Below, piece after piece: positions 22,604 to 60,097 of a stretch of 64,000 bases of DNA. The position numbers and the translations under genes are program-made. How positions within the stretch are numbered: the stretch's first letter is position 1; each line of letters opens with the position of its first letter. The notes below the pieces were generated by a model that was given only the letters and a program-made list of their open reading frames with translations, made no database searches and was not told the origin of the DNA. This DNA is from Dehalococcoidia bacterium (GTDB lineage Bacteria > Chloroflexota > Dehalococcoidia > Lucifugimonadales > Australimonadaceae): the NCBI GenBank assembly GCA_022820645.1, contig JAJEFD010000006.1, positions 79,537 through 143,536 on the forward strand, read 5' to 3'.

Positions 22604-23971
22604 CTATGCTCGCTGTAGCCGCACCTCTTCGTAGCGGCGGTAGATCTCCAGTATCTGGTTCAGCGCGGGACTGTACCTGTCCATGTGGTAGTGGCTCAAC
22701 TTGAATCCTGCGTTGTCTCCCACCACGGCAGTCATGTCCCCCATCTCTGTCAGGCTCATCCGGTGGTCATCCTTCTCAGAGAATGCAGAGCGGGTGACCG
22801 GCCCCGGCAGTACGTTGACCGGCAGGTCTATCCGTTCATTCACAGCGGGGTCCCGGAACACGTTTATCGGGTCGCCGCCGTCCTGCACGATCTTCATCTG
22901 GTCCATCAGCAGTTTGCGGAACATGATGACGCCGCGGTCGGAGACGCCGAGGCGTTCGTTCTCGCGGTCGGCGATGGCTCCCTGGCTCCACCATGCCGCC
23001 AGGTCCTGCGCGAGGACGTAGTCGGCGATGGGGCGCCCCGCCTCATCGAACAGCGGATGCTCGAAGTAGGGTACGTAGTCCTGCTCCGGCACCTCCACGT
23101 CCGGCCCGGGGCAGTACGCCATGTAGTCCAGGTGCAGCGTGTGCTCGTCGTCCATCGGCACTCGTATCTGCAGCTCGCTGCGTATCTTCCCGCCGAGGCG
23201 GACGAAGTACGGGAACACGAGCGGGTGGCCTATCGTCCAGTCCGGTGTGTCTTCGGCTTCACCCTCACGGAGACGGTACTTCTGGATACCCCACTCGTTC
23301 ACTTCCCACTCCGTTTTCAGGTGGCGGACCTTGAACGAGTCTGCATGCTCCTGTGCGATCGCATCGTGCTCCGGATTGCCGGTGCCGCCGCCGCGGTCCA
23401 GAACGTGGTACTCGAACCACCAGCCGTGCGTGTACTCGGTGTGCGAGGTGTCGACCGAGTTCTCCATGCACTGGAGCCAGTTGGCGTTCAGCACGGAGGC
23501 GCCGACGTGCCGGTACGTGTTGTCCCAGACGAGCACGTCCCAGCGCGGGAGGAGCGGCACGGGCTCCGGGCCCAGGTAGGCGAATATCAGCCCGCCCAGC
23601 TCCTGCACCGGGTACGACTTGATGCGCACCTTCTCGTTGAAGTGCGAGCCTTCCGGCTCCGTCGGCTGGTCTACGCACTGGCCGTTCACGTCGTACATCC
23701 AGCCGTGATACATGCAGCGCAGACCCTCCTCGGTGGGGATCCCGATGGAGAGGTCGACGCGCCGGTGCGCGCAGCGCCGGTCCACGAGGCCGATCCTGCC
23801 GCTCTTGTCCTTGAAGAGCGTCAGATCCTCGCCGAGCAGACGCACGGATATGACGGGGTCGCGAAGCAGCCGTCCGTTGCTGGTGACAGGCCACCAGTAG
23901 CGGCGGAGCAGTTCGCCCATGGGCGTGCCCGCGCCGGTCTGCGTCAGCAGTACGTTCTCTTCCGCACGCAT
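22604..23971 (-). CDS. Rieske [2Fe-2S] non-heme-iron oxygenase, alpha subunit (phthalate-family, alpha-only type) - R0
   Basis: Rieske motif CAHRRVDLSIGIPTEEGLRCMYHGW, mononuclear-iron motif NSVDTSHTEYTH, strong RBS AAGGAGGAG. Confidence 0.85.
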   Translation of the reverse strand: MRAEENVLLTQTGAGTPMGELLRRYWWPVTSNGRLLRDPVISVRLLGEDLTLFKDKSGRIGLVDRRCAHRRVDLSIGIPTEEGLRCMYHGWMYDVNGQCVDQPTEPEGSHFNEKVRIKSYPVQELGGLIFAYLGPEPVPLLPRWDVLVWDNTYRHVGASVLNANWLQCMENSVDTSHTEYTHGWWFEYHVLDRGGGTGNPEHDAIAQEHADSFKVRHLKTEWEVNEWGIQKYRLREGEAEDTPDWTIGHPLVFPYFVRLGGKIRSELQIRVPMDDEHTLHLDYMAYCPGPDVEVPEQDYVPYFEHPLFDEAGRPIADYVLAQDLAAWWSQGAIADRENERLGVSDRGVIMFRKLLMDQMKIVQDGGDPINVFRDPAVNERIDLPVNVLPGPVTRSAFSEKDDHRMSLTEMGDMTAVVGDNAGFKLSHYHMDRYSPALNQILEIYRRYEEVRLQRA

Positions 23972-24012
23972 CGGTGCTCCTCCTTACGCAGGCGTCGCGC
24001 AGGCAGCGCGGC

Positions 24013-41839: not shown

Positions 41840-41883
41840 GCGCTGGGCGCGGCGCATCCCGCTCTAAACCGCCCGCGCCGCGC

Positions 41884-41912
41884 TTGACCCGTGTCTACTC
41901 CCGCCCTACTCT
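41884..41912 (+). promoter_or_regulatory. Putative promoter of Rieske gene R1 (TTGACC-17-TACTCT)
   Basis: Lies 40 nt upstream of ATG 41952. The whole ~70-bp leader is duplicated in front of R3. Confidence 0.4.
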
Positions 41913-41951
41913 TACGCTACGCAAATCTGCGCACGCGAGGTGAACGCACGC

Positions 41952-43280
41952 ATGCTCAGCGTCAAAGCGAACCAGGAACTCACGCAGGTCAGCGCAGGCA
42001 CGCCGATGGGCGAACTGATGCGACGCTACTGGCACCCCATCGCAGGAGCGGCGGAGCTCGACGAGCGCCCCACCAAGGCCGTCCGCCTGCTCGGTGAGGA
42101 CCTCGTCCTCTACAAGGACAAGTCAGGCACGCTGGGCCTCATCGACCGCTTCTGCCCGCATCGCAGGGTCGACCTCTCCTACGGCATCCCCGAGGAGCAT
42201 GGGCTCCGGTGCATGTACCACGGCTGGATGATGGACGAGACCGGCCAGTGCATCGAGCAGCCGTTCGAGGAGACCGTCCACCCGGACGGACGCTTCAAGG
42301 AGAAGGTCAAGGTCGCCGGCTACCCGGTCGAGGTCGCAGGCGGACTCGTGTTCGCGTACCTCGGGCCGCAGCCCGTCCCGTTCCTGCCGCTGTGGGAGCC
42401 GCTCGTGTGGGACAACGCGGTGCGCGACATCGCCATCTCCCACCTGCCCTGCAACTGGCTCCAGTGCCAGGAGAACTCGCTCGACCCTGTGCACGTCGAG
42501 TGGGCGCACTCCTACTGGGGGCAGTACGTGCAACAGGGCCCCGGTTTCAAAGGCGCGCTGCTCGACCTGCCGACCCACCAGAAGATCGGGTTCGACATCT
42601 TCGAGCACGGCGTCGTGAAGCGCCGCGTGTTCAAGGGCTACACCGAGGAGGACGACGACTGGAAGCACGGCCACCCGGTCTTCGTGCCGAACATCCTGCT
42701 CGTCGGCTCCGAGGTCTCGGTGACGATGCAGTTCCGCGTCCCGATAGACGACGAGAACACGCTGCACGTTTCCCTCTACACGTGGAGGGGCGCTCCCGGC
42801 CAGCCCGTGCCTAAACAGGAGTCCGTCCCCTACCGGGAGGTGCCGCTGCTCGACGAGAACGGCCGCTGGATCGTGGACGTGGTGTTCAACCAGGACTACA
42901 CGATGTGGGTGACGCAGGGGCCCATCGCCAAGCGGAACCTCGAGCATCTCGGCGAGTCCGACCGCGGCCTCATCCTCTACCGGAAGCTGCTCCGCGAGCA
43001 GATGGACATCGTCGCCGACGGCGGGGATCCGATGAACGTCTTCCGCACCCCCGCGCCGGAGGGCGGCATCGTCGCGCCGCTGGAGCGGGTCAAGTTCGGG
43101 ATGAAGCGCGCCAAGAAGTACATCCCCGGCGAGGCCGGATACTCCCGCGACGGTGAACTCATCAACCAGGTGCTCCAGACGTGGGAGGAGTTGCCGGATC
43201 GCGCGCCCGCTGCTTCCGAGGACGAACTCAAGGAGGCCGCAGGCGCCGTGGATGGCATCAAGGACAACTGGCCGCTGTAG
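41952..43280 (+). CDS. Rieske non-heme-iron oxygenase alpha subunit - R1
   Basis: CPHRRVDLSYGIPEEHGLRCMYHGW and NSLDPVHVEWAH. ATG with RBS GAGGTG, chosen by analogy with R3 (both start MLSVKANQELTQVSAGTP). Confidence 0.85.
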   Translation: MLSVKANQELTQVSAGTPMGELMRRYWHPIAGAAELDERPTKAVRLLGEDLVLYKDKSGTLGLIDRFCPHRRVDLSYGIPEEHGLRCMYHGWMMDETGQCIEQPFEETVHPDGRFKEKVKVAGYPVEVAGGLVFAYLGPQPVPFLPLWEPLVWDNAVRDIAISHLPCNWLQCQENSLDPVHVEWAHSYWGQYVQQGPGFKGALLDLPTHQKIGFDIFEHGVVKRRVFKGYTEEDDDWKHGHPVFVPNILLVGSEVSVTMQFRVPIDDENTLHVSLYTWRGAPGQPVPKQESVPYREVPLLDENGRWIVDVVFNQDYTMWVTQGPIAKRNLEHLGESDRGLILYRKLLREQMDIVADGGDPMNVFRTPAPEGGIVAPLERVKFGMKRAKKYIPGEAGYSRDGELINQVLQTWEELPDRAPAASEDELKEAAGAVDGIKDNWPL

Positions 43281-43318
43281 CTTGGGGCACCGGTGAACGA
43301 ATACGAGGAGGCCACGCG

Positions 43319-44587
43319 ATGCTGAGCGTACAGGAGAATGAGCAACTGACGCAGGTCGGCCCCGGAACGCCGATGGGCGAACTCATGCGACGCTACTGGC
43401 ACCCCATCGCAGCCAGCGCCGAACTGATCGAGCGTCCCACCAAGGCCGTCCGCCTGCTCGGTGAGGACCTCGTCCTCTACAAGGACAAGTCCGGCACACT
43501 CGGCCTCATCGACCGCTTCTGCCCCCACCGTAGAGTCGACCTCTCCTACGGCATCCCCGAGGAGAACGGCCTGCGCTGTATGTACCACGGCTGGATGATG
43601 GACGAGACCGGACAGTGCATCGAGCAGCCCTTCGAGGAGACGGTCCACCCGGACGGTCGCTTCAAGGAGAAGGTGAAGATCGCAGGCTACCCGGTCCGCG
43701 AGATGGCGGGGCTGGTGTTCGCCTACCTCGGCCCGCAGCCCGTGCCGCTGCTCCCGCGTTGGGAGCACCTGCTCTGGGAGAACGCCGTCCGCGACATCGC
43801 CATCACGGAGATCCCCTGCAACTGGCTGCAGTGCCAGGAGAACTCGCTCGACCCCGTCCACGTCGAGTGGCTGCACGCCTACATGGGCGCGTACCGCAAC
43901 ACGGACCGCATCGCCACGCAGCAGCGCGGCTCGTCGCGCAGGCACCAGAGGATCGGGTTCGACGAGTTCGAGTTCGGCATCATCAAGCGCCGCATCCTCG
44001 AGGGCAAGGACGAGACCGACGATGAGTGGGCTGAGGGCCACCCCGTCCTCTTCCCGAACATCCTGCTCGTCGGCAACGAGGCGCGCGCCACGTTCCAGTT
44101 CCGCGTGCCCGTGGACGACACGAACACACTGCACGTCTCCATCTACAACTACCGCGCCGCGCCCGGCGCAAGCGCACCGACGCAGGATGCCATCCCCTAC
44201 CGCTACGTCCCGCTGAAGGACGACGAAGGACGCTACATCGTCGACTGGACGTTCAACCAGGACTACATGGCCTGGGCGACGCAGGGCCCCATCGCCAAGC
44301 GCCACCTGGAGATGCTGGGGCAGTCGGACGTCGGCATCATCCTCTTCCGCAAGCAGTTGAAGCGGAACATCGCGGTGATGGAGGACGGGGGCGACCCGAT
44401 GAACGTCTTCCGCGGAGACGAGCTCGGACTATTGCACGCGCCGGTGGAGAAGGTGAAGTTCGGTGTGCGGGCGCAGGCGCGCTACGTCCGGCCCGAAGCC
44501 GGCGACACCCCGGCGGTGCCGCAGATCGAAGAGGTCATGAGCACCTGGGTCGACTACCTCGGCGAGGAGGCCACGCTGGGGCGGTAG
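43319..44587 (+). CDS. Rieske non-heme-iron oxygenase alpha subunit - R2
   Basis: Start reassigned to MLSVQENEQLTQ (RBS GAGGAGG). CPHRRVDLSYGIPEENGLRCMYHGW and NSLDPVHVEWLH. Confidence 0.85.
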   Translation: MLSVQENEQLTQVGPGTPMGELMRRYWHPIAASAELIERPTKAVRLLGEDLVLYKDKSGTLGLIDRFCPHRRVDLSYGIPEENGLRCMYHGWMMDETGQCIEQPFEETVHPDGRFKEKVKIAGYPVREMAGLVFAYLGPQPVPLLPRWEHLLWENAVRDIAITEIPCNWLQCQENSLDPVHVEWLHAYMGAYRNTDRIATQQRGSSRRHQRIGFDEFEFGIIKRRILEGKDETDDEWAEGHPVLFPNILLVGNEARATFQFRVPVDDTNTLHVSIYNYRAAPGASAPTQDAIPYRYVPLKDDEGRYIVDWTFNQDYMAWATQGPIAKRHLEMLGQSDVGIILFRKQLKRNIAVMEDGGDPMNVFRGDELGLLHAPVEKVKFGVRAQARYVRPEAGDTPAVPQIEEVMSTWVDYLGEEATLGR

Positions 44588-44651
44588 GGACGCCCCACTT
44601 CTCGCTGCCAAGCCGCCAGAGAAAGCTAACGCGGTTAACCTCGCGTCGCGC

Positions 44652-44680
44652 TTGACCGGCGCACACGTCCGCCCTACCCT
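44652..44680 (+). promoter_or_regulatory. Putative promoter of Rieske gene R3 (TTGACC-17-TACCCT)
   Basis: Paralogous to 41884..41912, with the same 40-nt distance to the ATG. Confidence 0.4.
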
Positions 44681-44719
44681 TACGCCACGCACACCCACGT
44701 ACGCGAGGAGAATGCACGC

Positions 44720-45997
44720 ATGCTCAGCGTCAAGGCCAACCAGGAACTCACGCAGGTCAGCGCAGGGACGCCGGGGGGCGAGCTCATGCGCCGCTACTGG
44801 CACCCCATCGCCGCGACGGCGGAGCTCGACGAGCGCCCCACCAAGCCGGTGCGGCTGCTCGGCGAGGACCTCGTCCTCTACCGCGACAGATCCGGCACCC
44901 TGGGCCTCATCGAACGCTTCTGCCCCCACCGTCGGGTCGACCTCTCCTACGGCATACCGGAGGAGAACGGCCTCCGATGCATGTACCACGGCTGGATGAT
45001 GGACGAGACCGGCCAGTGCATCGAGCAGCCCTTCGAGGAGACGGTCCATCCGGACGGACGCTTCAAGGAGAAGGTCAAGATCGCGGGCTATCCTGTGGAG
45101 GAACTCGGCGGCCTCATCTTCGCGTACATGGGCCCGCAGCCCATGCCGCTGCTGCCGCGATGGGAGCAGCTGACGTGGGACAACGCGGTGCGCGAGATCT
45201 GCATCTCCGAACTGCCGTGCAACTGGCTGCAGTGCCAGGAGAACTCACTCGACCCCGTCCACAACGAGTGGCTCCACGCCTACTACGGCAACGTCGTCCG
45301 CAACGGCGTCCACGCGCTGCCCGAACTGCGCGGCACACACCTCAAGATCGGGTTCGACGTCTTCGAGCACGGCATCATCAAGCGCCGCGTCGAGGCCGGA
45401 TACACCGAGGAGGACGACGACTGGAAGGAAGGCCACCCCATCATGTTCCCCAACATCCTCCTGGTGGGCGACGAGGTGCGCTCCACGTTCCAGTTCCACG
45501 TGCCCGTGGACGACGAGAACACATACCACGTCTCCTACTACGTGTGGCGTCCCGCGCCCGGAGCACAGGCCCCGCGTCAGGAGAGCGTCCCCTACCGCTA
45601 CGTGCCGCTGAAGGACGAGAACGACCGCTACATCAACGACATCCTCTTCAACCAGGACTACCTCGCGTGGGTCACGCAGGGCCCCGTCGCCAAGCGCCAC
45701 CTGGAGAAGCTCGGCGAGTCCGACAAGGGCACCATCCTCTTCAGGAAGCTGCTGCAGGAGCAGGCGCAACTCGTCGCCGACGGCGGCGACCCGATGAACA
45801 CGTTCCGCGACCCCGAGCAGAACGAGGCGATCAGCCTGCCGCTGGAGCACGTGAAGTTCGGCAACCGCCGCCGCATGGGCTACACGCTCGTCGAGGCCGG
45901 TGAGCCGGTCGTAGCCGACGTCGTGAACGAGACGCTGGAAAGCTGGGAGGGCATGCGCAGCCTGCCGCGCACCGCAGGGGCCGCGCACGGGGCGTAG
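44720..45997 (+). CDS. Rieske non-heme-iron oxygenase alpha subunit - R3
   Basis: CPHRRVDLSYGIPEENGLRCMYHGW and NSLDPVHNEWLH. Confidence 0.85.
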   Translation: MLSVKANQELTQVSAGTPGGELMRRYWHPIAATAELDERPTKPVRLLGEDLVLYRDRSGTLGLIERFCPHRRVDLSYGIPEENGLRCMYHGWMMDETGQCIEQPFEETVHPDGRFKEKVKIAGYPVEELGGLIFAYMGPQPMPLLPRWEQLTWDNAVREICISELPCNWLQCQENSLDPVHNEWLHAYYGNVVRNGVHALPELRGTHLKIGFDVFEHGIIKRRVEAGYTEEDDDWKEGHPIMFPNILLVGDEVRSTFQFHVPVDDENTYHVSYYVWRPAPGAQAPRQESVPYRYVPLKDENDRYINDILFNQDYLAWVTQGPVAKRHLEKLGESDKGTILFRKLLQEQAQLVADGGDPMNTFRDPEQNEAISLPLEHVKFGNRRRMGYTLVEAGEPVVADVVNETLESWEGMRSLPRTAGAAHGA

Positions 45998-46140
45998 CAG
46001 CCATTCAGAGCGACGTGTGACCGCCAGCACGGCGCAGGGGTTGACGACGGTCATCGCCCGATAGCGCTTGACGTTGCGCGGCTTGCTATAATCCCGTCGC
46101 AGGACAGCGCGAAATCCAGCAGCACAAGGAGAGAGACCTC

Positions 46141-47424
46141 ATGCTGACGCAGGAAGCGAACGACCGCTACACCCGGGTAGGCCCCGGCACCCCGATGGGC
46201 GAGCTGATGCGACGCTACTGGCACCCCGTAGCCGCCGTCTCCCAGATGAACGACAAGTGGACGATGAAGGTGCGCCTCTTGGGCGAGGACCTCATCCTCT
46301 ACAAGGACCGCTCCGGCACGTTCGGCCTCATGGAGCCGCACTGCGCCCACCGGCGCATGAACATGATTTACGGCATCCCTGAGGAGCACGGCCTCCGCTG
46401 CCCATACCACGGCTGGCTGTACGATGAGACGGGCCAGTGCACCGAGCAGCCGTACGAGGAGACAGAGGACCCGGAGGCGCGGTTCAAGGACAAGATCCAG
46501 ATGAAGGCGTACCCGGTGGAGCAGAAGGCCGGGCTGCTGTTCGCCTACCTCGGCCCGACGCCCGTGCCCCTCATCCCCAACTACGACGTCTTCTCCGCGA
46601 CCGGCGTCCTGCGCGACATCGGCTACGCGATGCTCCCGTGCAACTGGCTGCAGTGCCAGGAGAACTCGCTGGACCCGGTGCACCTCGAGTGGCTGCACGT
46701 CGCGTGGGCCAACTTCATCCGCGAGATGAACGGCGACAAGGAACGCCGCACCCGCTGGCCGCACAAGACCATCCGCTTCGACGCCTTCGAGCACGGCATC
46801 ATCAAGCGCCGCATCTGGGAGGGCGGTTCCGAAGAGGACACCGAGTGGAAGGACGGCCACCCCATCGTCTTCCCCAACTACCTGCGACAGGGCGGCGACG
46901 GCTACAACGTTGCCGACGGCAGGTACCGGGGCAGCTTCTCGATGGGCCCCGCCTTCCAGATCCGCACCCCCATCGACGACTACAACACCGCCCACTGGTG
47001 GGTCGCCTGCTACCCGATGATCGAGGGCGACGTCGAGCAGGCGCCGGAGGAGATCCCCTTCTACCTCCCGCCCGTGCCGACGCTGGACGAGAACGACCAG
47101 CCCATCTATCCCGAACTGCGCAGCAACTCCTCGCAGGACCCGGCGGCATGGATAACGCAGGGCGGCATCGCCGACCGCACGGGCGAGCACCTCGGCCGCT
47201 CCGACAAGGGCATCATCATGTTCCGCCAGATGCTGGAGGACAACATGCGCATCGTCGAGGACGGCGGCGACCCGATGGAGGTCTACCGAGACCCCGCGGA
47301 GAACGTCTACATCCCGTTCATGACGGAGCAGCACAACTACGTGGACACCTCGTCCCGCCAGGGGGCGGCGACGATGTACTCGCCCATCCTGGATAGGCGG
47401 GAAGCCGCAGCTGCGGCCAAGTAG
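46141..47424 (+). CDS. Rieske non-heme-iron oxygenase alpha subunit - R4 (more divergent)
   Basis: CAHRRMNMIYGIPEEHGLRCPYHGW and NSLDPVHLEWLH. RBS AAGGAGAG. A perfect TATAAT lies at 46087-46092. Confidence 0.85.
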   Translation: MLTQEANDRYTRVGPGTPMGELMRRYWHPVAAVSQMNDKWTMKVRLLGEDLILYKDRSGTFGLMEPHCAHRRMNMIYGIPEEHGLRCPYHGWLYDETGQCTEQPYEETEDPEARFKDKIQMKAYPVEQKAGLLFAYLGPTPVPLIPNYDVFSATGVLRDIGYAMLPCNWLQCQENSLDPVHLEWLHVAWANFIREMNGDKERRTRWPHKTIRFDAFEHGIIKRRIWEGGSEEDTEWKDGHPIVFPNYLRQGGDGYNVADGRYRGSFSMGPAFQIRTPIDDYNTAHWWVACYPMIEGDVEQAPEEIPFYLPPVPTLDENDQPIYPELRSNSSQDPAAWITQGGIADRTGEHLGRSDKGIIMFRQMLEDNMRIVEDGGDPMEVYRDPAENVYIPFMTEQHNYVDTSSRQGAATMYSPILDRREAAAAAK

Positions 47425-47460: not shown

Positions 47461-47568
47461 TCGCTATCCCGACCTCACCACTCTATGATTGCGGCGGCAG
47501 CGCGCCCGTTCTGCTCGACGTGGGGAGTGTTGCCGAACCTGAACACGACACATCGCAGGAGGCGCAAC

Positions 47569-48678
47569 ATGACCCTCATCCTGAATAACGACGACATCGC
47601 ATCCGTGCTGACGATGGAGGAGACGATAGGCGCGCTGCGGAACGCGTACGAGGAGCTCGCGCGCACCGAGGCCGTCTGCCGCCCGCGCATCGACATCCGC
47701 ATCCCCACGTCCGACCCCGCGAAGATGTATCAGTGGGGCACGATGGAGGGCGGCTCCGCGTCCGGCTACTTCGCCATCCGCATGAAATCGGACGTCGTCT
47801 ACGAGCAGGAGTACGGCGGCACGCGCACCCAGGAGAAGTACTGCCTGCGCCCCGGCCTCTTCTGCGGCCTCATCCTGCTGATGAGCGTCGATAACGGCGA
47901 GCCGCTCGCCATCATCAACGACGGCTACCTCCAGCACATGCGCGTCGGGGCCGACTCCGGCATCGGCGCGGGCTACATGGCGCGCGAGGACGCGTCGGTC
48001 GTCGCCATGATCGGCTCCGGCGGCATGGCGCGCTCGCACGCCGAGTCGTTCGCCGCCGTACGCGACATCAAGCGCATCCAGGTCTACAGTCCCACGAAGG
48101 CGAACCGCGAGGCCTACGCCGCCGAGATACAGGCGAAGATGGGCATCGAGGTCGTCCCGGTCGGGTCCGCTGCCGAGGCGTGCAAGGGCGCGCACATCGT
48201 CGCGGGGTGTACTGACGCGGTGGAGCCGGTCATCTTCGGCAAGGACATCGAGGACGGCGCGCACATGACCTGCGTCGGCGGCAGCATCGACGGCGAAGCG
48301 TTCGAGCGCATCGACCGCTCGCTCCGCCTCGGCTCGGCGCCTGCGCCGGTCGGCATACCGGAGATGCGGCTCCACGACGAGAACATCGCCTACGAGGCCA
48401 ACGCGCCGGACGGTACGCCCGCATCCGCGAGCCAGACGCGCGAGCGCGCCGGCAGGGGGCACGGCGTCGTCGCCGAGGACCGCGTCGTCTTCCTGGAAGA
48501 AGTGCTGCAGGGAGCACAGGCACGTCCCGGCCCCAGCGCCGTCACCTACTCGGAGCGCGGCAACATCCAGGGCGCGCAGTTCTTCTCCGTCGCGGGCCGC
48601 GCCTACGAACTCGCAAAGGCGAAGGGTCTCGGCCACGAACTCCCCACCGAGTGGTTCCTGCAGGACATCCGCGACTGA
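47569..48678 (+). CDS. Ornithine cyclodeaminase/mu-crystallin family protein
   Basis: Start at MTLILNNDDIASVLTMEETIGALRNAY (RBS CAGGAGG). Rossmann motif MIGSGGMARSHA. Confidence 0.7.
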   Translation: MTLILNNDDIASVLTMEETIGALRNAYEELARTEAVCRPRIDIRIPTSDPAKMYQWGTMEGGSASGYFAIRMKSDVVYEQEYGGTRTQEKYCLRPGLFCGLILLMSVDNGEPLAIINDGYLQHMRVGADSGIGAGYMAREDASVVAMIGSGGMARSHAESFAAVRDIKRIQVYSPTKANREAYAAEIQAKMGIEVVPVGSAAEACKGAHIVAGCTDAVEPVIFGKDIEDGAHMTCVGGSIDGEAFERIDRSLRLGSAPAPVGIPEMRLHDENIAYEANAPDGTPASASQTRERAGRGHGVVAEDRVVFLEEVLQGAQARPGPSAVTYSERGNIQGAQFFSVAGRAYELAKAKGLGHELPTEWFLQDIRD

Positions 48679-48766: not shown

Positions 48767-49867
48767 ATGGCGCGACGTTTCACCTACGACGACTGGATGG
48801 AGTCCCAGGGCATCCCCATCCACCGGGGCTACTACGTGGAAGACCTCCGCACCGCCGAGCTCGGCTGGTGGGAGGACCGCCAGGTGGACGCCGCGTTCAT
48901 GCAGTTGCGCGGCATGGAGGGCGTGGTCGAGGGCCGCATCGAGGAGATACCGCCGGGACACACGCTCCCACCGCTGAAACTCTCCGTCGACGAGCAGGTC
49001 TACGTCCTCGGCGGACGCGGTGTCGCCACCGTCTGGACGGACGACGTCCGCCCGAAGAAGACGTTCGAGTGGGCGACGCGCAGCCTCTTCCTCGTGCCGC
49101 GCAACTCGTACTGCCAGTTGACGAACATGGACGGCAACAACCCGGCGCGGCTGCTCCACTACAACTACCTCCCCATCGCCATGTCCGCCACACCGGACCC
49201 GGACTTCTTCGTCAACAACCCGTACTCCACCAACTCCTTCCTGCACAGCACGGAGGAGTTCTACTCCGAGGCGAAGGCCGTCATGGAGGAGGGCGAGGGC
49301 GCCTTCGCCGGACGCGGACGGCAGGTGTGGCACGGCAACTTCTTCCCGGACATGGCCGCCTGGGACAAGCTCGTCCCGTTCTGGGGGCGCGGCGCCGGCG
49401 GACACGTCGTCTTCATCCAGTCGCCCGGGTCGGAGATGCACGCGCACATGTCCGTCTTCCCCGCCCGCACCTACAAGAAGGGCCACCGCCACGGGCCGGG
49501 GCGCGTCATCGTCATCCCCGGCGGCGAGGGCTACTCCGTCATGTGGGAGGAGGGGAAGGAGAAGATCGTCATTCACTGGCACGAGGCGAGTTGCTTCGTA
49601 CCCCCGGACCGCTGGTTCCACCAGCACTTCAACCTCGGCCGGGCCGACGGGCGCTACCTCGCGCTCCATCCGCCGAACCAGTTCATGGGCATGTCCGAGA
49701 AGGTCACCGACCGCGGCCGCGACCAGATCGAGTACCCGAACGAGGACCCGTGGATACGCGAGTACTTCGAGAGCCAGCTGGCCGAGCGCGGCATGACGTC
49801 CGAGATACCGGCGGAAGCCTATGAGGACCCCACCTACGAGTGGGACTACTCGAAGTCCGCGGGCTGA
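48767..49867 (+). CDS. Bicupin protein, gentisate-1,2-dioxygenase-like (3-His site only in the C-terminal cupin) - cupin 1
   Basis: C-terminal barrel: YKKGHRHGPGRVIVIPGGEGYS...CFVPPDRWFHQHFNLG (HxH...H). The N-terminal barrel has G..YVLGGRG...LFLVPRN but no His ligands. RBS GGAGG. Confidence 0.7.
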   Translation: MARRFTYDDWMESQGIPIHRGYYVEDLRTAELGWWEDRQVDAAFMQLRGMEGVVEGRIEEIPPGHTLPPLKLSVDEQVYVLGGRGVATVWTDDVRPKKTFEWATRSLFLVPRNSYCQLTNMDGNNPARLLHYNYLPIAMSATPDPDFFVNNPYSTNSFLHSTEEFYSEAKAVMEEGEGAFAGRGRQVWHGNFFPDMAAWDKLVPFWGRGAGGHVVFIQSPGSEMHAHMSVFPARTYKKGHRHGPGRVIVIPGGEGYSVMWEEGKEKIVIHWHEASCFVPPDRWFHQHFNLGRADGRYLALHPPNQFMGMSEKVTDRGRDQIEYPNEDPWIREYFESQLAERGMTSEIPAEAYEDPTYEWDYSKSAG

Positions 49868-49963
49868 TGTCCGGCGCGGCACGCGCTCGCGCGATACGGT
49901 AAGATAGGGCGACGCCGGGCATAGTCCCGGCGTTGCGCTGCAATCTCTCTCTGGGGACGCCAC

Positions 49964-51487
49964 ATGCACGACGACGACGATCTCGACCATTCACACGTAT
50001 TCGACCTGCTGAACGACGAGGAAGCCGAGGATATCGAGGGGATCGAGAAGTTCACGCTCTACAGCGTGGGCATAGACATCGGCTCCTCCACCACCCACAC
50101 CATCTTCTCCCGGCTGGTGCTTCGCCGCGAGGGCGCCGGGCTCTCCGCCAAGTTCGTCGTCACCAACCGCGACGTGCTCTACCGCTCGCCCATCATGCTC
50201 ACGCCCTACTCCTCCGGCACCGCCATCGACACGGACAGCGTGCAGGAGTTCATCGAGCGCTCCTACAGCGAGGCGGGTTTCACGCCGGACGACGTTGACA
50301 CCGGCGCGGTCGTCATCACGGGCGAGGCGCTCAAGAAGGAGAACGCGCAGCCCATCCTCGAGTACTTCTCCGAGGAGTCCGGGCGTTTCATCTGCGCGTC
50401 CGCAGGCCCGATGCACGAGGCGCTGCTGGCGGCGTTCGGCTCCGGCGCAGTCGCCATCTCCAAGAGCAATTCCAACACCGTGCTGGACGTGGACATGGGC
50501 GGCGGCACGACCAAGATATCCCTCATCCGCAACGGCGAGATCGCCCAGATGGTCGCCATCGAGGTCGGCGCGCGTCTCATCGCCTACGACGACGACATGA
50601 CCATCACCCGCGTCGAGCAGCCCGCCCGCACCATCCTCGGCTCACTCGGCCAGACGGTCGAGGTCGGCGAGAAGCTCACGGACGAGAAGCGCGAGCTGTT
50701 CGCCGCCAAGATGACCGACATCCTCTTCGACGCCATCAGCGGCGGCGAGATGGACCCGCTCACCGATTCGCTCCTGCTCACCGACAGCCTCGACATCGAC
50801 TCGCTGGAGGACGTCGACCACGTCGTCTTCTCCGGCGGCGTGTCCGAGTACGTGTACGACCGCACGAGCGAGTCGTACGGCGACATCGGCCCGTGGCTCG
50901 GTAAGAACGTGCGCGAGCGCTGTCAGCAGACGTTGCGTCCCGGCATGCTGGTGATGCCCGCCGAGGGCATCCGCGCCACCGTTATCGGCGCGGGCGAGTA
51001 CACCCTGCAGGCGAGCGGGAGCACCTCGTACATCTCCACGCACGACGTGCTTCCGGTGCGCGGCATACAGGTCGCTCGGGCGTTCATTAACAAGGAGCAG
51101 ACCGCGGAAGAGATGGAGGCTGCGCTGGCGACAGGCGTCGGCAAGTACGACCTGGCGAAGCTGCCATCCACCATGGCGCTCGCCATGTCCATAGCCGGAC
51201 AGCCGGACTACTGGTACATCCGGCGCCTGGCAGAATCCATCGTCAAGACCGTGGACGACGAGCCCCCGGAAGCTCCGGTCTTCGTCGTCGTGGACGTGGA
51301 CGTGGCCAAGTCGCTCGGCGGCATCATCCGCGAGGAGTTGCACCTGGACCGGGCCGTCATCGCGATAGACGGCATCGAGGTGGGTGACCTGGACTACGTG
51401 GACGTGGGCAAGCCGATGGGCGCGAGCGAGGTCATCCCCGTCACCGTCAAGTCGCTCGTATTCTCCATCCGCTCGCAGTCCGGATAG
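49964..51487 (+). CDS. EutA-family ASKHA ATPase (homologue of the ethanolamine ammonia-lyase reactivating factor) with an acidic/His-rich N-terminal tail - EutA-like 1
   Basis: Collinear with E. coli EutA as I recall it: VGIDIGSSTTH, VDTGAVVITGEALKKENA, ICASAGPMHEALLAAFGSGA, VLDVDMGGGTTK, VFSGGVSEYVY, IRATVIGAGEYTLQASGSTS, VIPVTVKSLVF. Confidence 0.8.
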   Translation: MHDDDDLDHSHVFDLLNDEEAEDIEGIEKFTLYSVGIDIGSSTTHTIFSRLVLRREGAGLSAKFVVTNRDVLYRSPIMLTPYSSGTAIDTDSVQEFIERSYSEAGFTPDDVDTGAVVITGEALKKENAQPILEYFSEESGRFICASAGPMHEALLAAFGSGAVAISKSNSNTVLDVDMGGGTTKISLIRNGEIAQMVAIEVGARLIAYDDDMTITRVEQPARTILGSLGQTVEVGEKLTDEKRELFAAKMTDILFDAISGGEMDPLTDSLLLTDSLDIDSLEDVDHVVFSGGVSEYVYDRTSESYGDIGPWLGKNVRERCQQTLRPGMLVMPAEGIRATVIGAGEYTLQASGSTSYISTHDVLPVRGIQVARAFINKEQTAEEMEAALATGVGKYDLAKLPSTMALAMSIAGQPDYWYIRRLAESIVKTVDDEPPEAPVFVVVDVDVAKSLGGIIREELHLDRAVIAIDGIEVGDLDYVDVGKPMGASEVIPVTVKSLVFSIRSQSG

Positions 51488-51511
51488 CAGGAGCATTCGG
51501 AGTCTGGCGCC

Positions 51512-51835
51512 ATGCTCATCGCGGCACTCGTCTTTGGACTCCTGGGCGGGGTCGTCGGCCTCTTCATCGGGACGCTCGTATTCATCGGCGATCTGGTGGA
51601 CTTCGCGTTCCGCGGGGGAGATACCAACACCGCCGGACTGCTGGTGCTGTTCTTCGCCCTCCTGGCCATCGCGGGCTCGATCATGTCCCTCAAGAAACCG
51701 TGGCAGGCTGCGGCGCTCCTGCTCGTCTCCGGCATCGGCCCCATGATCGTCGTCAACATATTCGGAGCGCCCATCTTTTTCCTCACGCTCCTTGCGGCCT
51801 TCTCGGCTGTACGCGGACGCCGCGAGATCCGCTAG
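51512..51835 (+). CDS. Small 4-TM membrane protein
   Basis: 107 aa, almost entirely hydrophobic (LIAALVFGLLGGVVGLFIGTLVFIG, LLVLFFALLAIAGSI, AALLLVSGIGPMIVV, IFFLTLLAAF). Starts 24 nt after EutA-like 1. Confidence 0.55.
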   Translation: MLIAALVFGLLGGVVGLFIGTLVFIGDLVDFAFRGGDTNTAGLLVLFFALLAIAGSIMSLKKPWQAAALLLVSGIGPMIVVNIFGAPIFFLTLLAAFSAVRGRREIR

Positions 51836-51848: not shown

Positions 51849-51877
51849 GGGCCGGAACGCGACTTGCGTTCCGGCCC
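51849..51877. terminator. Bidirectional stem-loop terminator
   Basis: Perfect 12-bp stem GGGCCGGAACGC / GCGTTCCGGCCC with a 5-nt loop, followed by CTCTTTCTC. Lies between convergent genes ending at 51835 and 51902. Confidence 0.65.
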
Positions 51878-55632: not shown

Positions 55633-57282
55633 TTACTCCGGGATGGGGTAGCCGTCTGAGCGGCGGTCGGTGCCGCCGGTGTGGACGCCCCGTTCGTGGT
55701 CTATGCCTATGAGCTGTACCGCGCCGGGCGTGCCGACGCTGGGATAGGTCCTGATCTTGTGGCCCTTCGCCTCCAACGCCCGCAGCGTCTCCTCCGGGAA
55801 ACCGTCCTCGAGGCGGAGCACCATCTCCTCGTCTATCGTGCGCGGGTCGGTGCCGGGGAAGTGCGTCCAGCGCGGTGCGTCGGCCGCTTCCTGCACGTTC
55901 ATCCCGTGGTCGATCACGTTGGACACCGCCTGCGCGTTCCACTGCGGCTGGTTGTCGCCGCCCGGCGTCCCGCCGACGAGCACAGGCTTGTCGTCCTTGA
56001 ACACCATGTAGGCGTGGATCGTGTTGATCGTCTTCTTGCCGGGGGCGATGACGTTCACGTGGCCCTCGTCCAGGTAGAAGCCGCGTCCCGCACGGTCGTT
56101 GAAAAGGATGCCGGTATCTCCGGCCACGAAGCCGCTGCCCCAGTACGCCGAGAGGCTGTGGATGAACGAGACCGCGTTCCCTTCCTTGTCGATGACGTTG
56201 AAGTACGACGTGCTCGGCGTGGGCGCGGCGGAGTGCGCGAGTTCGCCCGCTGGCACGATGCCCTCGGCGGCGCGCTCCGGGTCGATGCTCTTGATGCGCT
56301 GGGCGGCGTACTCCGGCGACAGCAGTTCGTCCAGCGGCACGTCGATGAACTCCGGGTCGCCGACATACGCGAGACGGTCGGCGAACGCCAGCCGCTTCGC
56401 CTCGACCATCGTGTGGACGCTCTCGATAGTGTTGTGGCCCATCGCCGCGAGGTCGAAGCCGTCCAGCAGGCTCAGCAGCTCCAGCGTGAGCATGCCCTGC
56501 GAGGGCAGACCGGTCGCGTAGACCGTGTGGCCGTGGAAGCGCGCGGAGGGCGGGTTCTCGTAGACCAGCGTCTCCTGCCCGGCGAGGTCGGCTTCATCGA
56601 TGAGGCCGCCACCGTCCTCCATCGCCTGCGCTATCTGCCTGGCGATCGTGCCGAGGTAGAACTCGTCCGGCCCGTGCTCCGCGATGCGCCGCAGCGACCG
56701 CGCAAGGTTCGGCTGAGCGAATACGTCGCCCACCTGGTACGCGGAGCCGTCAGGCTTGATGTACGTCTTCGCGGTCGACTCGTACTTGGCGATCTTGTCG
56801 TAGTGGTCGCTGAAGTAGCTGGCGGAGCGCGGCGGCAGCGAGAAACCCTCGGACGCGAGGCTGATGGCCGGGTCGATGAGCGATGCCAACGAGCGCGTCC
56901 CGAACCGGTCGACGATCGTCTGCCATGCGCGCACCTCGCCGGGAACGGCGGGCGTCAGCGGGCCGTCGGCCGGCATCTTCACGTAACCCAGGTCAGTGAA
57001 GTATTCCCGCCGCGCGCGCATCGGCGCCTTGCCGGAGCCGGAGACGCCGTAGAGCGTACCGGACGCGGCGTGGTAGAGGAGGGCGAACACCTCGCCACCG
57101 ATGCCGCACATCATGGGCAGCGTCACGGCTTCCGCCGCCGCGACGGCGACTGCAGCGTCGAACGCGTTCCCTCCCTCGCGCATCACATGCGCTCCCACAG
57201 CGCCTGCCAGCGGCGAGGCGGAGCCGACCAGTCCACGCGTCGTGTATACGGGGCTATGCGACCTGTTGATGACGCTGCTCAC
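55633..57282 (-). CDS. ggt: Gamma-glutamyltranspeptidase-family Ntn hydrolase, apparently without a signal peptide
   Basis: ASPLAGAVGAHVMREGGNAFDAAVA, MCGIGGEVFALLY, a catalytic-Thr region PSTSYFNVIDKEGNAV, and GGTPGGDNQPQ. GTG start (MSSVINRSHSP). The upstream 440 codons of the track ORF are antisense to cupin 2. Confidence 0.8.
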   Translation of the reverse strand: MSSVINRSHSPVYTTRGLVGSASPLAGAVGAHVMREGGNAFDAAVAVAAAEAVTLPMMCGIGGEVFALLYHAASGTLYGVSGSGKAPMRARREYFTDLGYVKMPADGPLTPAVPGEVRAWQTIVDRFGTRSLASLIDPAISLASEGFSLPPRSASYFSDHYDKIAKYESTAKTYIKPDGSAYQVGDVFAQPNLARSLRRIAEHGPDEFYLGTIARQIAQAMEDGGGLIDEADLAGQETLVYENPPSARFHGHTVYATGLPSQGMLTLELLSLLDGFDLAAMGHNTIESVHTMVEAKRLAFADRLAYVGDPEFIDVPLDELLSPEYAAQRIKSIDPERAAEGIVPAGELAHSAAPTPSTSYFNVIDKEGNAVSFIHSLSAYWGSGFVAGDTGILFNDRAGRGFYLDEGHVNVIAPGKKTINTIHAYMVFKDDKPVLVGGTPGGDNQPQWNAQAVSNVIDHGMNVQEAADAPRWTHFPGTDPRTIDEEMVLRLEDGFPEETLRALEAKGHKIRTYPSVGTPGAVQLIGIDHERGVHTGGTDRRSDGYPIPE

Positions 57283-57393
57283 GATGACACACCTCTCTCG
57301 CACGAGTATCCGGGCAGCGGCATGATATGCTCCGCATCTGCCACCGGCAAACCTACCGCGCTCTGGCGCGCCACAGAAACAGGGAGGAACACC

Positions 57394-58485
57394 ATGGCCG
57401 AGGACTTCACCTATGACCGCTGGATGAACAGCCAGGGGATACCTGTACACCGCGGCTACTACATCGAGGATCTGCGCAACATCGAACTCGGCCATTGGGG
57501 CCTGCGCGATTGCGACGCCGCCTTCATCCAACTGGAGGGGATGCCCGGCGTTGTGGAGGGGCGCGTGCAGGAAGTGCCACCCGGAGGTTCCATCAAGCCG
57601 TTCAAGCAAGCGATAGACGAGATGGTCTACGTCGCCAGCGGACAGGGCACGGCGTCCGTCTGGAGCGGCGACGGCGAGCCGCACACGTTCGAGTGGTCGC
57701 CGCGCAGCCTCTTCCTCATCCCGCGCAACTCGTGGGCGCAGTTCAACAACATGCAGGGCGACAGGCCCGCGCGCCTGCTGCACTACAACTACCTCCCCAT
57801 CGCAATGTCCGCCATCCCTAACCCGGACTTCTTCTTCAATAACCCCTTTGAGGAAGACGTGCTCAGTGGGGAGGACTTCTACTCCGAGGCCGAGGCGACG
57901 ACCCAGGAGCACGTAGCCGAGGGCGCCGCGGGGCGCACGCTCTGGCTCGGCAACTTCTTCCCGGACATGGGCGTCTGGGACAAGCTGATGCACCGTCCCG
58001 GACGCGGCTCCCTGAACCGCTCCGTCTACATGCGCATACCAGGCTCGGAGCTGCGCGCGCACATGTCCGTCTTCCCAGCGGGGACGTACAAGAAAGGACA
58101 CCGCCACGGACCGGGACGCGTCATCGTCATTCCCGGCGGCGAGGGCTTCTCCATCATGTGGCAGGAGGGCCAGGAGAAGATCGTCATCCACTGGCACGAG
58201 GCGAGCTGCTTCGTGCCGCCGGACCGCTGGTTCCACCAGCACTTCAACCTCGGCGCCGCTCCCGGACGCTACCTCGCACTCCATCCGCCGAACCAGTTCA
58301 TGGGCATGTCCGAGTCGGTGCAAGACCTCTCGCGCGACCAAATTGAGTATCCCGACGAAGACCCGTGGATACGCGAGTATTTCGAGAGCCAGCTCGCCGA
58401 GCGGGGCATCGAGTCCCAGATGCCGGACGAGGCGTACCGCGACCGCAACTACCGCTGGGACTACACCGGCGTCAAGGAGAACTAG
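57394..58485 (+). CDS. Bicupin protein, paralogue of 48767..49867 - cupin 2
   Basis: MAEDFTYDRWMNSQGIPVHRGYYIEDL...YKKGHRHGPGRVIVIPGGEGFS...CFVPPDRWFHQHFNLG. RBS AGGGAGG. Start reassigned inside the track ORF 55681..58485. Confidence 0.75.
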   Translation: MAEDFTYDRWMNSQGIPVHRGYYIEDLRNIELGHWGLRDCDAAFIQLEGMPGVVEGRVQEVPPGGSIKPFKQAIDEMVYVASGQGTASVWSGDGEPHTFEWSPRSLFLIPRNSWAQFNNMQGDRPARLLHYNYLPIAMSAIPNPDFFFNNPFEEDVLSGEDFYSEAEATTQEHVAEGAAGRTLWLGNFFPDMGVWDKLMHRPGRGSLNRSVYMRIPGSELRAHMSVFPAGTYKKGHRHGPGRVIVIPGGEGFSIMWQEGQEKIVIHWHEASCFVPPDRWFHQHFNLGAAPGRYLALHPPNQFMGMSESVQDLSRDQIEYPDEDPWIREYFESQLAERGIESQMPDEAYRDRNYRWDYTGVKEN

Positions 58486-58534
58486 CGCCTCCCGCCCACC
58501 GCATAGACACCAGCCGAAAGGAAGACCAGCCCTC

Positions 58535-60097
58535 ATGCACGACGAGCCCTGGGCGCACGTCCACGATCCCGACGAAGAGCGCCTCGCCAAACTCACCATC
58601 GAACTGAACAACCCCGACCACGACTACTACCACTACGAGGTCATCGAACTCACGACGGTCGGCATCGACATCGGCTCCTCCACGTCGCACCTCATGTTCT
58701 CGAGCATCACGCTCCAGCGCGTGCAGGAGATGCACTCCAGCCGGTACGTCGTCGTGGACAGGCAGACGCTCTACAAGTCGCCCATCCTGCTCACCCCGTA
58801 CACGCATGACAACCTCATCAACACGGAGCAATTGCAACGGTTCGTCGCCGAGTCGTACGCGGAGGCAGGCTTCGAGCCGCAGGACGTCGACAGCGGCGCG
58901 ATCATCCTCACGGGCGAGGCGATCAAGCGGCGTAACGCCCACGCGATAGCCGACATCTTCGCCGACCAGGCGGGCAAGTTCGTCTGCGCCTCCGCGGGCC
59001 ACAACCTGGAGTCCGTGCTCGCAGCCAACGGGTCGGGCTCGGTGAAGCTGTCGCGCAACCCGCGCCAGACCGTACTGAACGTTGACATCGGCGGCGGCAC
59101 GACGAAGTTCGCGCTCGTCCACGGCGGACGCATCCAGCACACCGCTGCCCTCAACGTTGGCGGACGGCTAGTCGCCACGGACGACGACGGCAGGGTCACA
59201 CGCATCGAGGACGCGGCGCACACCGCCGCCGACAGCATCGCCGTGCCGCTCGCGCTCGGCGAACACCTGCCGGACGAGCACCGCACCGCCATCGCGGACG
59301 CGCTTGCGGAGTGCCTGTTGGACGTGATCCAGGGCCGCCCGCGCTCCGAGCTGACAGAGGCGCTGCTGCTGACCGCAGACATCCCGCTCGATGCCACCTT
59401 CGACGCGCTCGTCTTCTCCGGCGGCGTCTCCGAGTACGTCTACAACAACGAGACGCAGGAATTCGGCGACCTCGCGGTCGCACTCGCGGCCGCCGTCCGG
59501 CGCAAGATGGCGGAGCACGCGCTGCCCGCGCCGGTGCAGCCCGCAGCGGAGCGCATCCGCGCCACGGTCATCGGGGCGTCGCAGTTCACTGTGCAGTTGA
59601 GCGGGAACACGCTCTCCATATCGGACCCGTCGCTCCTCCCCTACCGGAACGTGCCTGTGCTCATCTCGCGGCTGCCGGAGGACCACGAGGTGCAGCCGGA
59701 GGAGGTCGCCGCGCTCGTTGGAGAAGCGTTCGAGCGGCAGGACCTCGTGGAGGGTGAGCAGCAGGTGGCGCTCGCGTTCGAGTGGGACGGCCTGCCGCGC
59801 TACGCGCAGATACGCAAGATAGCGGACGGCATCGCGTCGGCGGTGCCGCGCTCGCTGGCGAACGGCGCACCGCTCATGCTCGTCTTCACCGGCGACTTCG
59901 CCAAACTGGTGGGCGACACCATCACGAAGGACATGGGCATCCCGAACCCGGTCATCTCCATCGACAACCTCTTCCTGCAGGAGTTCGATTTCATCGATAT
60001 CGGGGAGATGATCTACCCGGCGCGGGTCGTGCCGGTAGTCGTGAAGTCGCTGCTCTTCCCGGAGATCGAGAAGCAGACCGCCGAAGTGCTGGACTGA
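58535..60097 (+). CDS. EutA-family ASKHA ATPase with a His/Asp-rich N-terminal tail - EutA-like 2
   Basis: VGIDIGSSTSH, VDSGAIILTGEAIKRRNA, VCASAGHNLESVLAANGSGS, VLNVDIGGGTTK, LNVGGRLVATDDDGRV, VFSGGVSEYVY, IRATVIGASQFTVQLSGNTL, VVPVVVKSLLFP. Start at MHDEPWAHVHD. Confidence 0.8.
   Translation: MHDEPWAHVHDPDEERLAKLTIELNNPDHDYYHYEVIELTTVGIDIGSSTSHLMFSSITLQRVQEMHSSRYVVVDRQTLYKSPILLTPYTHDNLINTEQLQRFVAESYAEAGFEPQDVDSGAIILTGEAIKRRNAHAIADIFADQAGKFVCASAGHNLESVLAANGSGSVKLSRNPRQTVLNVDIGGGTTKFALVHGGRIQHTAALNVGGRLVATDDDGRVTRIEDAAHTAADSIAVPLALGEHLPDEHRTAIADALAECLLDVIQGRPRSELTEALLLTADIPLDATFDALVFSGGVSEYVYNNETQEFGDLAVALAAAVRRKMAEHALPAPVQPAAERIRATVIGASQFTVQLSGNTLSISDPSLLPYRNVPVLISRLPEDHEVQPEEVAALVGEAFERQDLVEGEQQVALAFEWDGLPRYAQIRKIADGIASAVPRSLANGAPLMLVFTGDFAKLVGDTITKDMGIPNPVISIDNLFLQEFDFIDIGEMIYPARVVPVVVKSLLFPEIEKQTAEVLD

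Follow-up and report, generated by a model that had tools for sequence, protein, structure and literature searches.

A EutA-family ATPase encoded beside a bicupin: a possible ATP-driven accessory factor for a cupin metalloenzyme

EutA uses ATP to swap damaged, tightly bound cobalamin out of ethanolamine ammonia-lyase (EAL). What, then, does a EutA-family protein serve when its constant neighbour is a cupin and not a B12 enzyme? The question is raised by a 64,000-nucleotide stretch of the genome of a Dehalococcoidia bacterium (GenBank assembly GCA_022820645.1, contig JAJEFD010000006.1, positions 79,537 to 143,536; hereafter the window; G+C content of ~66%), in which the gene of a bicupin (bicupin 1) is followed by that of a EutA-like ATPase (EutA-like 1). 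The two form cassette 1, and a second pair, bicupin 2 and EutA-like 2, forms cassette 2 (Table 1). The layout of cassette 1 in the original prediction, made from the sequence letters, was a 366-residue bicupin, a 96-nt gap, a 507-residue EutA-like protein, a 107-residue open reading frame (ORF) and a terminator-like hairpin, all of which were found again at the same coordinates. The reading preferred here, at a rough probability of 0.55, is that the EutA-like protein serves the neighbouring bicupin metalloenzyme as a dedicated accessory factor driven by ATP, and is not the reactivase of a B12 enzyme. The pair would represent a reactivase/chaperone family that was repurposed to a new client class and gained a metal-binding-type tail.

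The pairing was followed by a neighbourhood census from both sides. On the bicupin side, 79 loci around bicupin homologues of species-representative genomes (flanks of up to 10 kb) were examined together with the window, giving 80 loci; the family as a whole occupies at least 592 stretches in species-representative genomes and matches at least 2455 database clusters. A EutA-like gene is present in 36 of the 80 loci, which come from several phyla, and the adjacency is thus not a peculiarity of this genome; a restriction to it would have counted against the original prediction. Approximately 40 of 106 bicupin genes have the EutA-like gene directly adjacent, on the same strand and usually within 100 nt. 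The pair occurs in at least six unrelated gene settings: (i) after Rieske oxygenase and ornithine cyclodeaminase genes in Dehalococcoidia, (ii) after atpFHAGDC and before a further bicupin, at times with EamA genes in between, in Deltaproteobacteria and Binatia, (iii) before a molybdenum hydroxylase in other Binatia, (iv) in the order EutA-like to bicupin amid ATP-binding cassette (ABC) transporter genes in Micromonospora, (v) as two alternating pairs, each led by the EutA-like gene, in Acidocella, and (vi) between two bicupin genes in other Chloroflexota. The rest of the neighbourhood changes entirely from one lineage to the next, so that, as had been supposed, the EutA-like gene has no constant neighbour other than the bicupin. 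On the EutA side, an exhaustive HMMER scan of a 50%-identity cluster library (E ≤ 1e-30) yielded 758 representatives, and the contexts of 11 of these, with 33-57% identity to EutA-like 1, were inspected; three lie on contigs too short to judge. Of the eight informative representatives, at 36-57% identity, six (six of the 11 inspected) have in their operon a bicupin of the family with 27-60% identity to bicupin 1, and one locus (L087) has two pairs. Two of the 11 contexts are devoid of this bicupin, one of them with a pirin gene nearby, and eutBC genes were found in none of the 11.

Some settings of the pair have features of their own. In 11 loci of Deltaproteobacteria and Binatia metagenome-assembled genomes (L008, L010, L013, L015, L016, L018, L024, L026, L028, L030 and L081) the pair lies directly downstream of the F1Fo ATP synthase operon, a housekeeping neighbourhood rather than a catabolic one; often there is a second bicupin next, at times with EamA genes before it. 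In L081 the ATP-synthase-linked pair adjoins gidB-parAB, and a NikR_C regulator followed by a ZnuA/ABC/ABC-3 metal importer is encoded ~3.5 kb downstream of the pair (15065-18340). A cation diffusion facilitator efflux gene abuts the pair in L083. The L081 importer and the L083 efflux gene are single cases and may be coincidental. Neighbouring ABC transporters were also considered as metal (Fbp-type) importers; their nearest NCBIfam models are putative 2-aminoethylphosphonate or polyamine-type systems, at sub-threshold scores, and thus they provide no evidence of metal transport. An Aldolase_II (class II aldolase/adducin) gene lies between the bicupin and EutA-like genes in two distant operons, those of L086 (2254-3039) and of the P0294 context.

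The partners also diverge together. Distances among the EutA-like proteins correlate with those among the adjacent bicupins (Mantel r = 0.73, a value reached in 0 of 2000 permutations), and nearest neighbours are concordant in 27 of 30 cases. In the window and in two related loci (L004 and L041), both members of cassette 1 cluster with their counterparts, and so do both members of cassette 2; thus, the pair was duplicated and diverged as a unit. This pairing of paralogues within a genome is more telling than the overall correlation.

By its sequence, the 507-residue protein is a true member of the EutA family and not a EutA equivalog. EutA-like 1 matches PF06277 with 420.5 bits (E = 1.2e-125; cut-off 27), with residues 31-500 covering positions 2-474 of the 475-position model, and aligns with E. 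coli K-12 EutA from end to end at 32% identity (E = 5e-70). The collinearity with EutA and the three intact ASKHA motifs read earlier from the translation (VGIDIGSSTTH, LDVDMGGGTTK and VFSGGVSEYVY) were thereby borne out. Asp38 (phosphate-1, DxG), Asp177-Gly-Gly-Gly-Thr182 (phosphate-2, DxGGGT) and Ser290-Gly-Gly292 (adenosine, SGG) are invariant in 151 clade members and common to E. coli EutA. The NCBIfam EutA equivalog models NF007991-NF007994 are, by contrast, all missed: EutA-like 1 reaches at best 369 of the 598 bits required, and 218-269 bits with the other three models (cut-offs 769-952), and EutA-like 2 scores 349.7 bits against the 598-bit cut-off of NF007992. An AlphaFold2 model of EutA-like 1 (mean predicted local distance difference test, pLDDT, 82.2) finds its nearest solved folds by Foldseek among ASKHA ATPases (2-hydroxyacyl-CoA dehydratase activators, Ppx/GppA, actin and PilM), with no EutA-family chain among the PDB matches of either the Foldseek or the sequence search. 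Public records name the homologues 'ethanolamine ammonia-lyase reactivating factor EutA', 'ethanolamine utilization protein EutA' or 'recombinase'; for the cupin-associated proteins, the EutA label is probably misleading as to function.

B12 partners were sought in the window and around the homologues. Searches by tblastn with E. coli EutB, EutC, EutK/L/M/N, EutH, EutG and EutJ gave no match in the window or the 79 loci, and seven further loci around distant EutA-like proteins gave no Eut match except EutA itself. A EutE match in L018 (23% identity) was set aside as generic aldehyde-dehydrogenase similarity. A Pfam sweep of ~40 of the 48 called genes of the window identified no cobalamin-dependent enzyme; the window encodes a class I ribonucleotide reductase (large and small chains) and, on its own, a homocysteine S-methyltransferase domain. 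The absence of eutBC, other B12 enzymes and shell genes from the 64 kb, on which the original prediction had rested, therefore holds. Full-text literature searches recovered no EutA-cupin pair, no EutA-like protein outside eut/B12 contexts and no His-rich EutA homologue, in agreement with the earlier statement that no described cupin-EutA system was known; the 'EutA' of ectoine papers is an unrelated gene.

A further trait that sets the cupin-associated proteins apart is an N-terminal tail. All cupin-adjacent EutA-like proteins have an extension of ~35 residues before the phosphate-1 loop, which is absent from E. coli EutA in the alignment. Among the 120 closest database homologues, which were called by independent pipelines, 105 begin with Met-His (MHD in 97, MHE in 5 and MHG in 3). 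Over these homologues the tail contains on average 3.1 His and 34% Asp plus Glu, and terminates in a conserved EDIEG-x-E-x-F motif; in EutA-like 1, residues 1-26 are predicted to be disordered (AlphaFold2 pLDDT <50). The tail of the Micromonospora protein is poly-His (HHHQGHHHDHGHHHHCHHDDHGHSH), as are those of many of the 50%-cluster representatives, and 65 of 140 near-full-length EutA-family representatives carry at least three His in the tail region, often as HG or HD repeats. When the 151 clade members were compared with E. coli EutA and an orphan EutA-family protein of locus L025, His2 and Cys144 proved to be at least 97% invariant in the clade, while E. coli EutA has a gap and Val, and the orphan Thr and Ala, at these positions. 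Cys144 and His45 are invariant residues near the nucleotide site, and in the ASKHA fold Cys144 would lie just before the connect-1 helix, beside the nucleotide cleft. By analogy, the Met-His-Asp tail and Cys144 suggest hallmarks of metallochaperones such as the MHE motif of HypA.

Divergent forms of the protein were noted in the same survey. The orphan of L025 (791-2275, minus strand; PF06277 E = 4e-114), which is devoid of the Met-His tail and Cys144, is not bicupin-adjacent and adjoins an aldo-keto reductase gene and ORFs with no family; it may serve a third kind of client. P0334 (L090, 5001-6746) is His-rich at both ends, with a C-terminus of ...HGPHHHAHDHHHHHVEGGHAHAGHHHHHDD; it is not beside this bicupin family, and genes for pirin (another bicupin) and a BLUF protein lie just upstream. 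In a low-G+C subgroup of 670-700 residues (P0343, P0365, P0370, P0371, P0375 and P0381), ~200 extra N-terminal residues include a CxxC...H/C zinc-ribbon-like motif, and the position of Cys144 is taken by Ser. The reading frame of P0341 (606 residues) joins a EutA-like part with MHDIDGGHIHE to a following C-terminal bicupin half (YKKADRH...PPDQMFHQHFN...ARYLA); it may have arisen by natural fusion, by deletion or as a chimera of the assembly.

The partner itself would be a mononuclear-metal enzyme with a distant likeness to gentisate 1,2-dioxygenase (GDO). The family models bear out the expected assignments in part: PF06277 is matched by the ATPase and Cupin_2 by bicupin 2 (29.3 bits, E = 7e-7; cut-off 27.2), while bicupin 1 remains under the Cupin_2 cut-off (13.5 bits, E = 0.06), matches no NCBIfam model and, like its family, reaches no Pfam or NCBIfam GDO model at threshold. 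Weak NCBIfam matches of the family are to the 5-aminosalicylate dioxygenase MabB. The AlphaFold2 model of bicupin 1 consists of two beta-barrels in strand-rich halves (pLDDT 85.8; predicted template modelling, pTM, score 0.87), and Foldseek matches it to bicupins only (vicilins, OxdC, MncA and salicylate dioxygenase), with template modelling (TM) scores of ~0.45-0.52. A remote profile match to the GDO structure 3bu7 (E = 8e-4) pairs AHRHGPG...GEGY with AHRH...G.GY and HQHFN with HEHCN. In the C-terminal cupin, His227, His240-Arg-His242, Glu273, His285-Gln-His287 and Asn289 are invariant. The His cluster is confined to this domain, the N-terminal cupin having no HxH metal motif; an assignment to the GDO type by a 3-His Fe(II) site in the N-terminal cupin was thus rejected. 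No close structure of the bicupin or the EutA-like protein was found by sequence and profile searches of the PDB, where matches to MdaB and to the designed repeat 8pjs were spurious short alignments. Homologues are 55-75% identical across Dehalococcoidia, Binatia, Deltaproteobacteria and other phyla, and in the Dehalococcoidia loci L001, L003 and L004 the bicupin regions have 97-98% protein identity to the window. If the proposal made here is correct, so highly conserved a bicupin would stand out as a probable key enzyme.

Two bicupin positions differ with EutA adjacency. Residues 304 and 307 (window ~49676-49687), in a low-confidence loop after the last cupin strand, are mostly Met, Asn or Leu (304) and His or Met (307) in EutA-adjacent bicupins, and Arg or Pro (304) and Ser, Arg or Thr (307) in non-adjacent ones. 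The two positions may be determinants of docking or of a lid, but phylogeny confounds the comparison.

The surroundings of the bicupin hint at its role. Bicupins with no EutA-like neighbour lie near LigXa-like Rieske (32 loci), Amidohydro_2 (21 loci), LigB and transporter genes, a neighbourhood with the flavour of aromatic catabolism. That the LigXa-like Rieske family adjoins bicupin homologues in 32 of the 80 loci suggests a recurrent pathway in which a Rieske oxygenase is followed by a bicupin.

Taken with the His-rich tail, the pairing with a bicupin and with no B12 enzyme nearby indicates that the EutA-like protein is probably an ATP-driven helper which loads or repairs the metal site of the cupin. 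In the proposed mechanism, the bicupin would be the catalytic unit, with its only metal site (His240, His242, His285 and probably His287) in the C-terminal cupin and an AHRH motif resembling that of ring-cleaving dioxygenases of the gentisate/salicylate type. It would probably act after LigXa-like Rieske oxygenases in the degradation of aromatic or other recalcitrant organic matter. The EutA-like protein would bind a metal ion through its flexible Met-His-Asp tail, probably with Cys144 beside the nucleotide cleft; that the cargo is a metal ion is suggested by these two features. Its ATPase cycle, by analogy with EutA, would open the cupin and load or exchange the metal, whether the enzyme is receiving its metal for the first time or has been oxidised or mis-metallated. 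In Fe(II) enzymes of the GDO type the iron is easily lost or oxidised. Cupins such as MncA and CucA are prone to mis-metallation, their metal being trapped at folding (PMC4192464). As to which metal, the HypA-like motif and the poly-His tracts lean, by analogy, towards Ni or Co and the GDO-like motifs towards Fe(II); Ni/Co and Fe/Mn are both candidates. We infer the physical interaction of the two proteins, the transfer of metal and its direction, and the reaction of the bicupin. The suggestion of a maturation or repair chaperone in the original prediction thus gains independent support from the tail and Cys144. A more specific version, that the EutA-like proteins form a new metallochaperone/reactivase class, in which a EutA-family ATPase with a metal-capturing tail inserts or replaces the metal of an uncharacterised bicupin oxygenase, is tentative and put at somewhat under even odds.

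Several points weigh against an accessory role in metal loading or repair. For over half of the bicupin paralogues, no EutA-like gene lies within 10 kb; thus, an obligatory cupin-EutA partnership is not upheld, and the bicupin presumably works alone or is served in trans in these cases. The metal-site residues of EutA-adjacent and non-adjacent bicupins do not differ. Co-divergence of the partners in part reflects shared species phylogeny. About half of the distant EutA-family representatives are without a His-rich tail, and among these P0265 and P0288 are still bicupin-linked; a His/Asp-rich tail is in any case suggestive of metal binding and not proof of it. Known metallochaperone NTPases are G3E GTPases, MinD-type ATPases and AAA+ ATPases, and we know of no ASKHA protein among them.

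Of the alternatives, the one that survives best, though unlikely, is that the EutA-like protein is a catalytic pathway enzyme which activates the substrate or product of the bicupin, by phosphorylation or by ATP-coupled carboxylation in the style of hydantoinase or acetone carboxylase; the two genes would then be neighbours because they encode consecutive steps. Most ASKHA proteins are indeed kinases or ATP-dependent enzymes, EutA-like 1 has weak Pfam matches to Hydantoinase_A and to BcrAD_BadFG (24.2 bits, under the 31.5 cut-off), and the pair is often found amid catabolic genes (Rieske, Aldolase_II and transporters). The full-length collinearity with EutA, however, includes the C-terminal domains, and to our knowledge the only characterised function of the EutA family is protein-directed cofactor exchange. 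A His-rich disordered tail with poly-His variants is not a kinase feature, and the pair is also found next to ATP synthase genes where nothing catabolic is nearby; the EutA-like gene has the bicupin as its sole constant neighbour. The tail, the full-length EutA architecture and the housekeeping neighbours thus render a catalytic role less likely.

An ATP-coupled redox repair, in which the EutA-like protein delivers an electron that re-reduces an Fe(III) cupin centre in the manner of 2-hydroxyacyl-CoA dehydratase activators, RACo-type proteins or XylT, is improbable. The top Foldseek matches of EutA-like 1 are the HgdC/HadI activators and the ATPase subunits of benzoyl-CoA reductase, but the TM score is low (0.3 on the query) and reflects the common ASKHA core. 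A cluster that bridges a dimer could be coordinated by Cys144 and His45, both invariant and close to the nucleotide site, and a small ferredoxin gene lies just downstream of the EutA-like gene in L086. HgdC/BcrAD activators, on the other hand, have two conserved cysteines per monomer that bridge a [4Fe-4S] cluster, whereas of the two cysteines in EutA-like 1 only Cys144 is invariant; the protein has no [2Fe-2S] or [4Fe-4S] motif, and its His/Asp tail points to an ion and not to a cluster.

A genuine reactivase of EAL or of another B12 enzyme, with its client elsewhere in the genome and the cupin adjacent by accident, is very improbable: PF06277 membership is clear, the homologues are named EutA and the partner search covered the loci and the window rather than whole genomes, but the scores fall far under all four equivalog cut-offs, no eutBC or shell gene is within 10 kb in the window, the 36 loci or the sampled distant contexts, the two diverged paralogues per genome each sit beside their own co-diverging bicupin, and E. 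coli EutA has neither the tail nor Cys144.

An accessory factor for the bicupin can be compared with several known systems. With EutA of E. coli and Salmonella, the EutA-like proteins share PF06277, full-length collinearity, identical ASKHA motifs and, in all likelihood, the logic of an ATP-driven cofactor exchange in the client; they differ in their 32% identity, sub-equivalog scores, want of an eutBC, microcompartment or B12 context, constant bicupin partner, and added tail and Cys144. His-rich tracts are typical of chaperones of the HypB, UreE and SlyD type, which the poly-His tracts of the EutA-like relatives recall. The likeness to HypA lies in the Met-His-acidic N-terminus (MHD or MHE in 102 of the 120 homologues) and in the proposed coupling of a nucleotide hydrolase to metal delivery. 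In HypA, the N-terminal MHE binds Ni through the N-terminal amine and His2, and the H2A substitution abolishes function (PMC7055735). The EutA-like proteins are nonetheless not homologous to HypA, have the ASKHA fold and not that of HypA or a G3E GTPase, and are devoid of CxxC zinc motifs; clients of the HypA type are hydrogenase or urease, while that of the EutA-like protein is proposed to be a cupin.

Gentisate, salicylate and 5-aminosalicylate 1,2-dioxygenases resemble the bicupin in their fold of ~360 residues and in the AHRH...G.G and H.H.N motifs, and the Rieske oxygenases next to the bicupin gene recall pathways of salicylate hydroxylase and GDO. Unlike GDO, the bicupin falls under all GDO family thresholds, has Foldseek TM scores of only ~0.5 and carries its His cluster in the C-terminal and not the N-terminal cupin; no GDO is known to us to need an ATPase partner. 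XylT ferredoxins, which serve catechol 2,3-dioxygenase, share the concept of a dedicated repair factor encoded beside a ring-cleaving dioxygenase with an easily inactivated metal centre; XylT is, by contrast, a small [2Fe-2S] ferredoxin which acts by reduction without ATP, and the EutA-like protein a 507-residue ASKHA ATPase without a cluster motif.

If the proposal is correct, the EutA-like protein would be the first factor devoted to the ATP-dependent maturation or repair of a cupin enzyme, and the ASKHA/EutA fold would join the metal-delivery machines (G3E GTPases, MinD-type ATPases and AAA+ ATPases); a proven metal-insertase mechanism would define a new metallochaperone class. A systematic annotation error would also be corrected, as many database 'EutA' proteins are not beside any B12 enzyme and most of the non-enteric EutA family would be unrelated to ethanolamine or B12. 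The bicupin, a proposed oxygenase, occurs widely among uncultured lineages, SAR202/Dehalococcoidia, Binatia and Deltaproteobacteria included, and its gene adjoins those of LigXa-like Rieske oxygenases in lineages to which the breakdown of recalcitrant organic matter is attributed.

Table 1. Coordinates of the two bicupin/EutA-like cassettes and of associated features in the window.
Feature	Position	Strand	Basis
Bicupin 1, 366 aa	48767..49867	+	ORF
G+C-rich hairpin, 11-bp stem, in the 96-nt spacer between bicupin 1 and EutA-like 1	49909..49936	+	Sequence read, RNA fold
EutA-family ASKHA ATPase 1 (EutA-like 1), 507 aa	49964..51487	+	PF06277; phosphate-1, phosphate-2 and adenosine motifs intact
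N-terminal extension of EutA-like 1, residues 1-35 MHDDDDLDHSHVFDLLNDEEAEDIEGIEKFTLYSV, putative metal-binding tail	49964..50068	+	Homologue alignment
107-aa hydrophobic protein, 24 nt downstream, co-directional	51512..51835	+	ORF
Terminator-like hairpin, 13-bp stem, 10 G-C pairs, tail CTCTTTCTCG	51849..51877	+	Sequence
Bicupin 2, 363 aa, 68% identity to bicupin 1	57394..58485	+	Cupin_2 E = 7e-7; identical invariant C-terminal His cluster
EutA-family ATPase 2 (EutA-like 2), 519 aa, 40% identity to copy 1	58538..60097	+	N-terminus MHDEPWAHVHDPDEE...PDHDYYHYE
Four tandem paralogous LigXa-like Rieske oxygenase genes	~41868-43277, 43319-44587, 44720-45997, 46141-47424 (span 41868..47424)	+	Pfam Rieske + LigXa_C
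Ornithine cyclodeaminase/mu-crystallin family gene	47563..48678	+	PF02423 E = 1.7e-32

Within cassette 1, the spacer between the two genes (49868-49963) has a predicted RNA fold of -47.1 kcal/mol (z = -2.17 against shuffled sequences), and its hairpin is a candidate intercistronic element that may lower or stabilise downstream expression and so set the ratio of bicupin to ATPase. The 107-residue protein, which had been counted as part of the unit, has three to four hydrophobic segments as judged by eye and no family match in Pfam or NCBIfam. It was found by tblastn in 3 of the 79 loci, all near-identical relatives, and was rejected as a core component. The terminator-like hairpin separates its gene from the convergent gene of a dienelactone hydrolase on the minus strand.

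Directly upstream of cassette 1 lies the Rieske quartet, and a further Rieske copy, placed in the same cluster solely by BLAST, is at 22604-23983 on the minus strand. The ornithine cyclodeaminase gene directly 5' of bicupin 1 is retained in the Dehalococcoidia loci only and is thus a lineage-specific context. Between the cassettes are genes for the dienelactone hydrolase, a class-III aminotransferase (Pfam) and an NMT1-like protein, together with an ORF judged by eye to encode a gamma-glutamyltranspeptidase; a TctA transporter, recognised through its homologue cluster, is encoded downstream of cassette 2. The minus-strand ORF at 55633-58611 (992 codons) is an artefact of high G+C content: its N-terminal part is an antisense shadow of bicupin 2, while its C-terminal part appears, by eye, to be the real gamma-glutamyltranspeptidase gene. 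Long shadow ORFs of this kind are frequent across the window.

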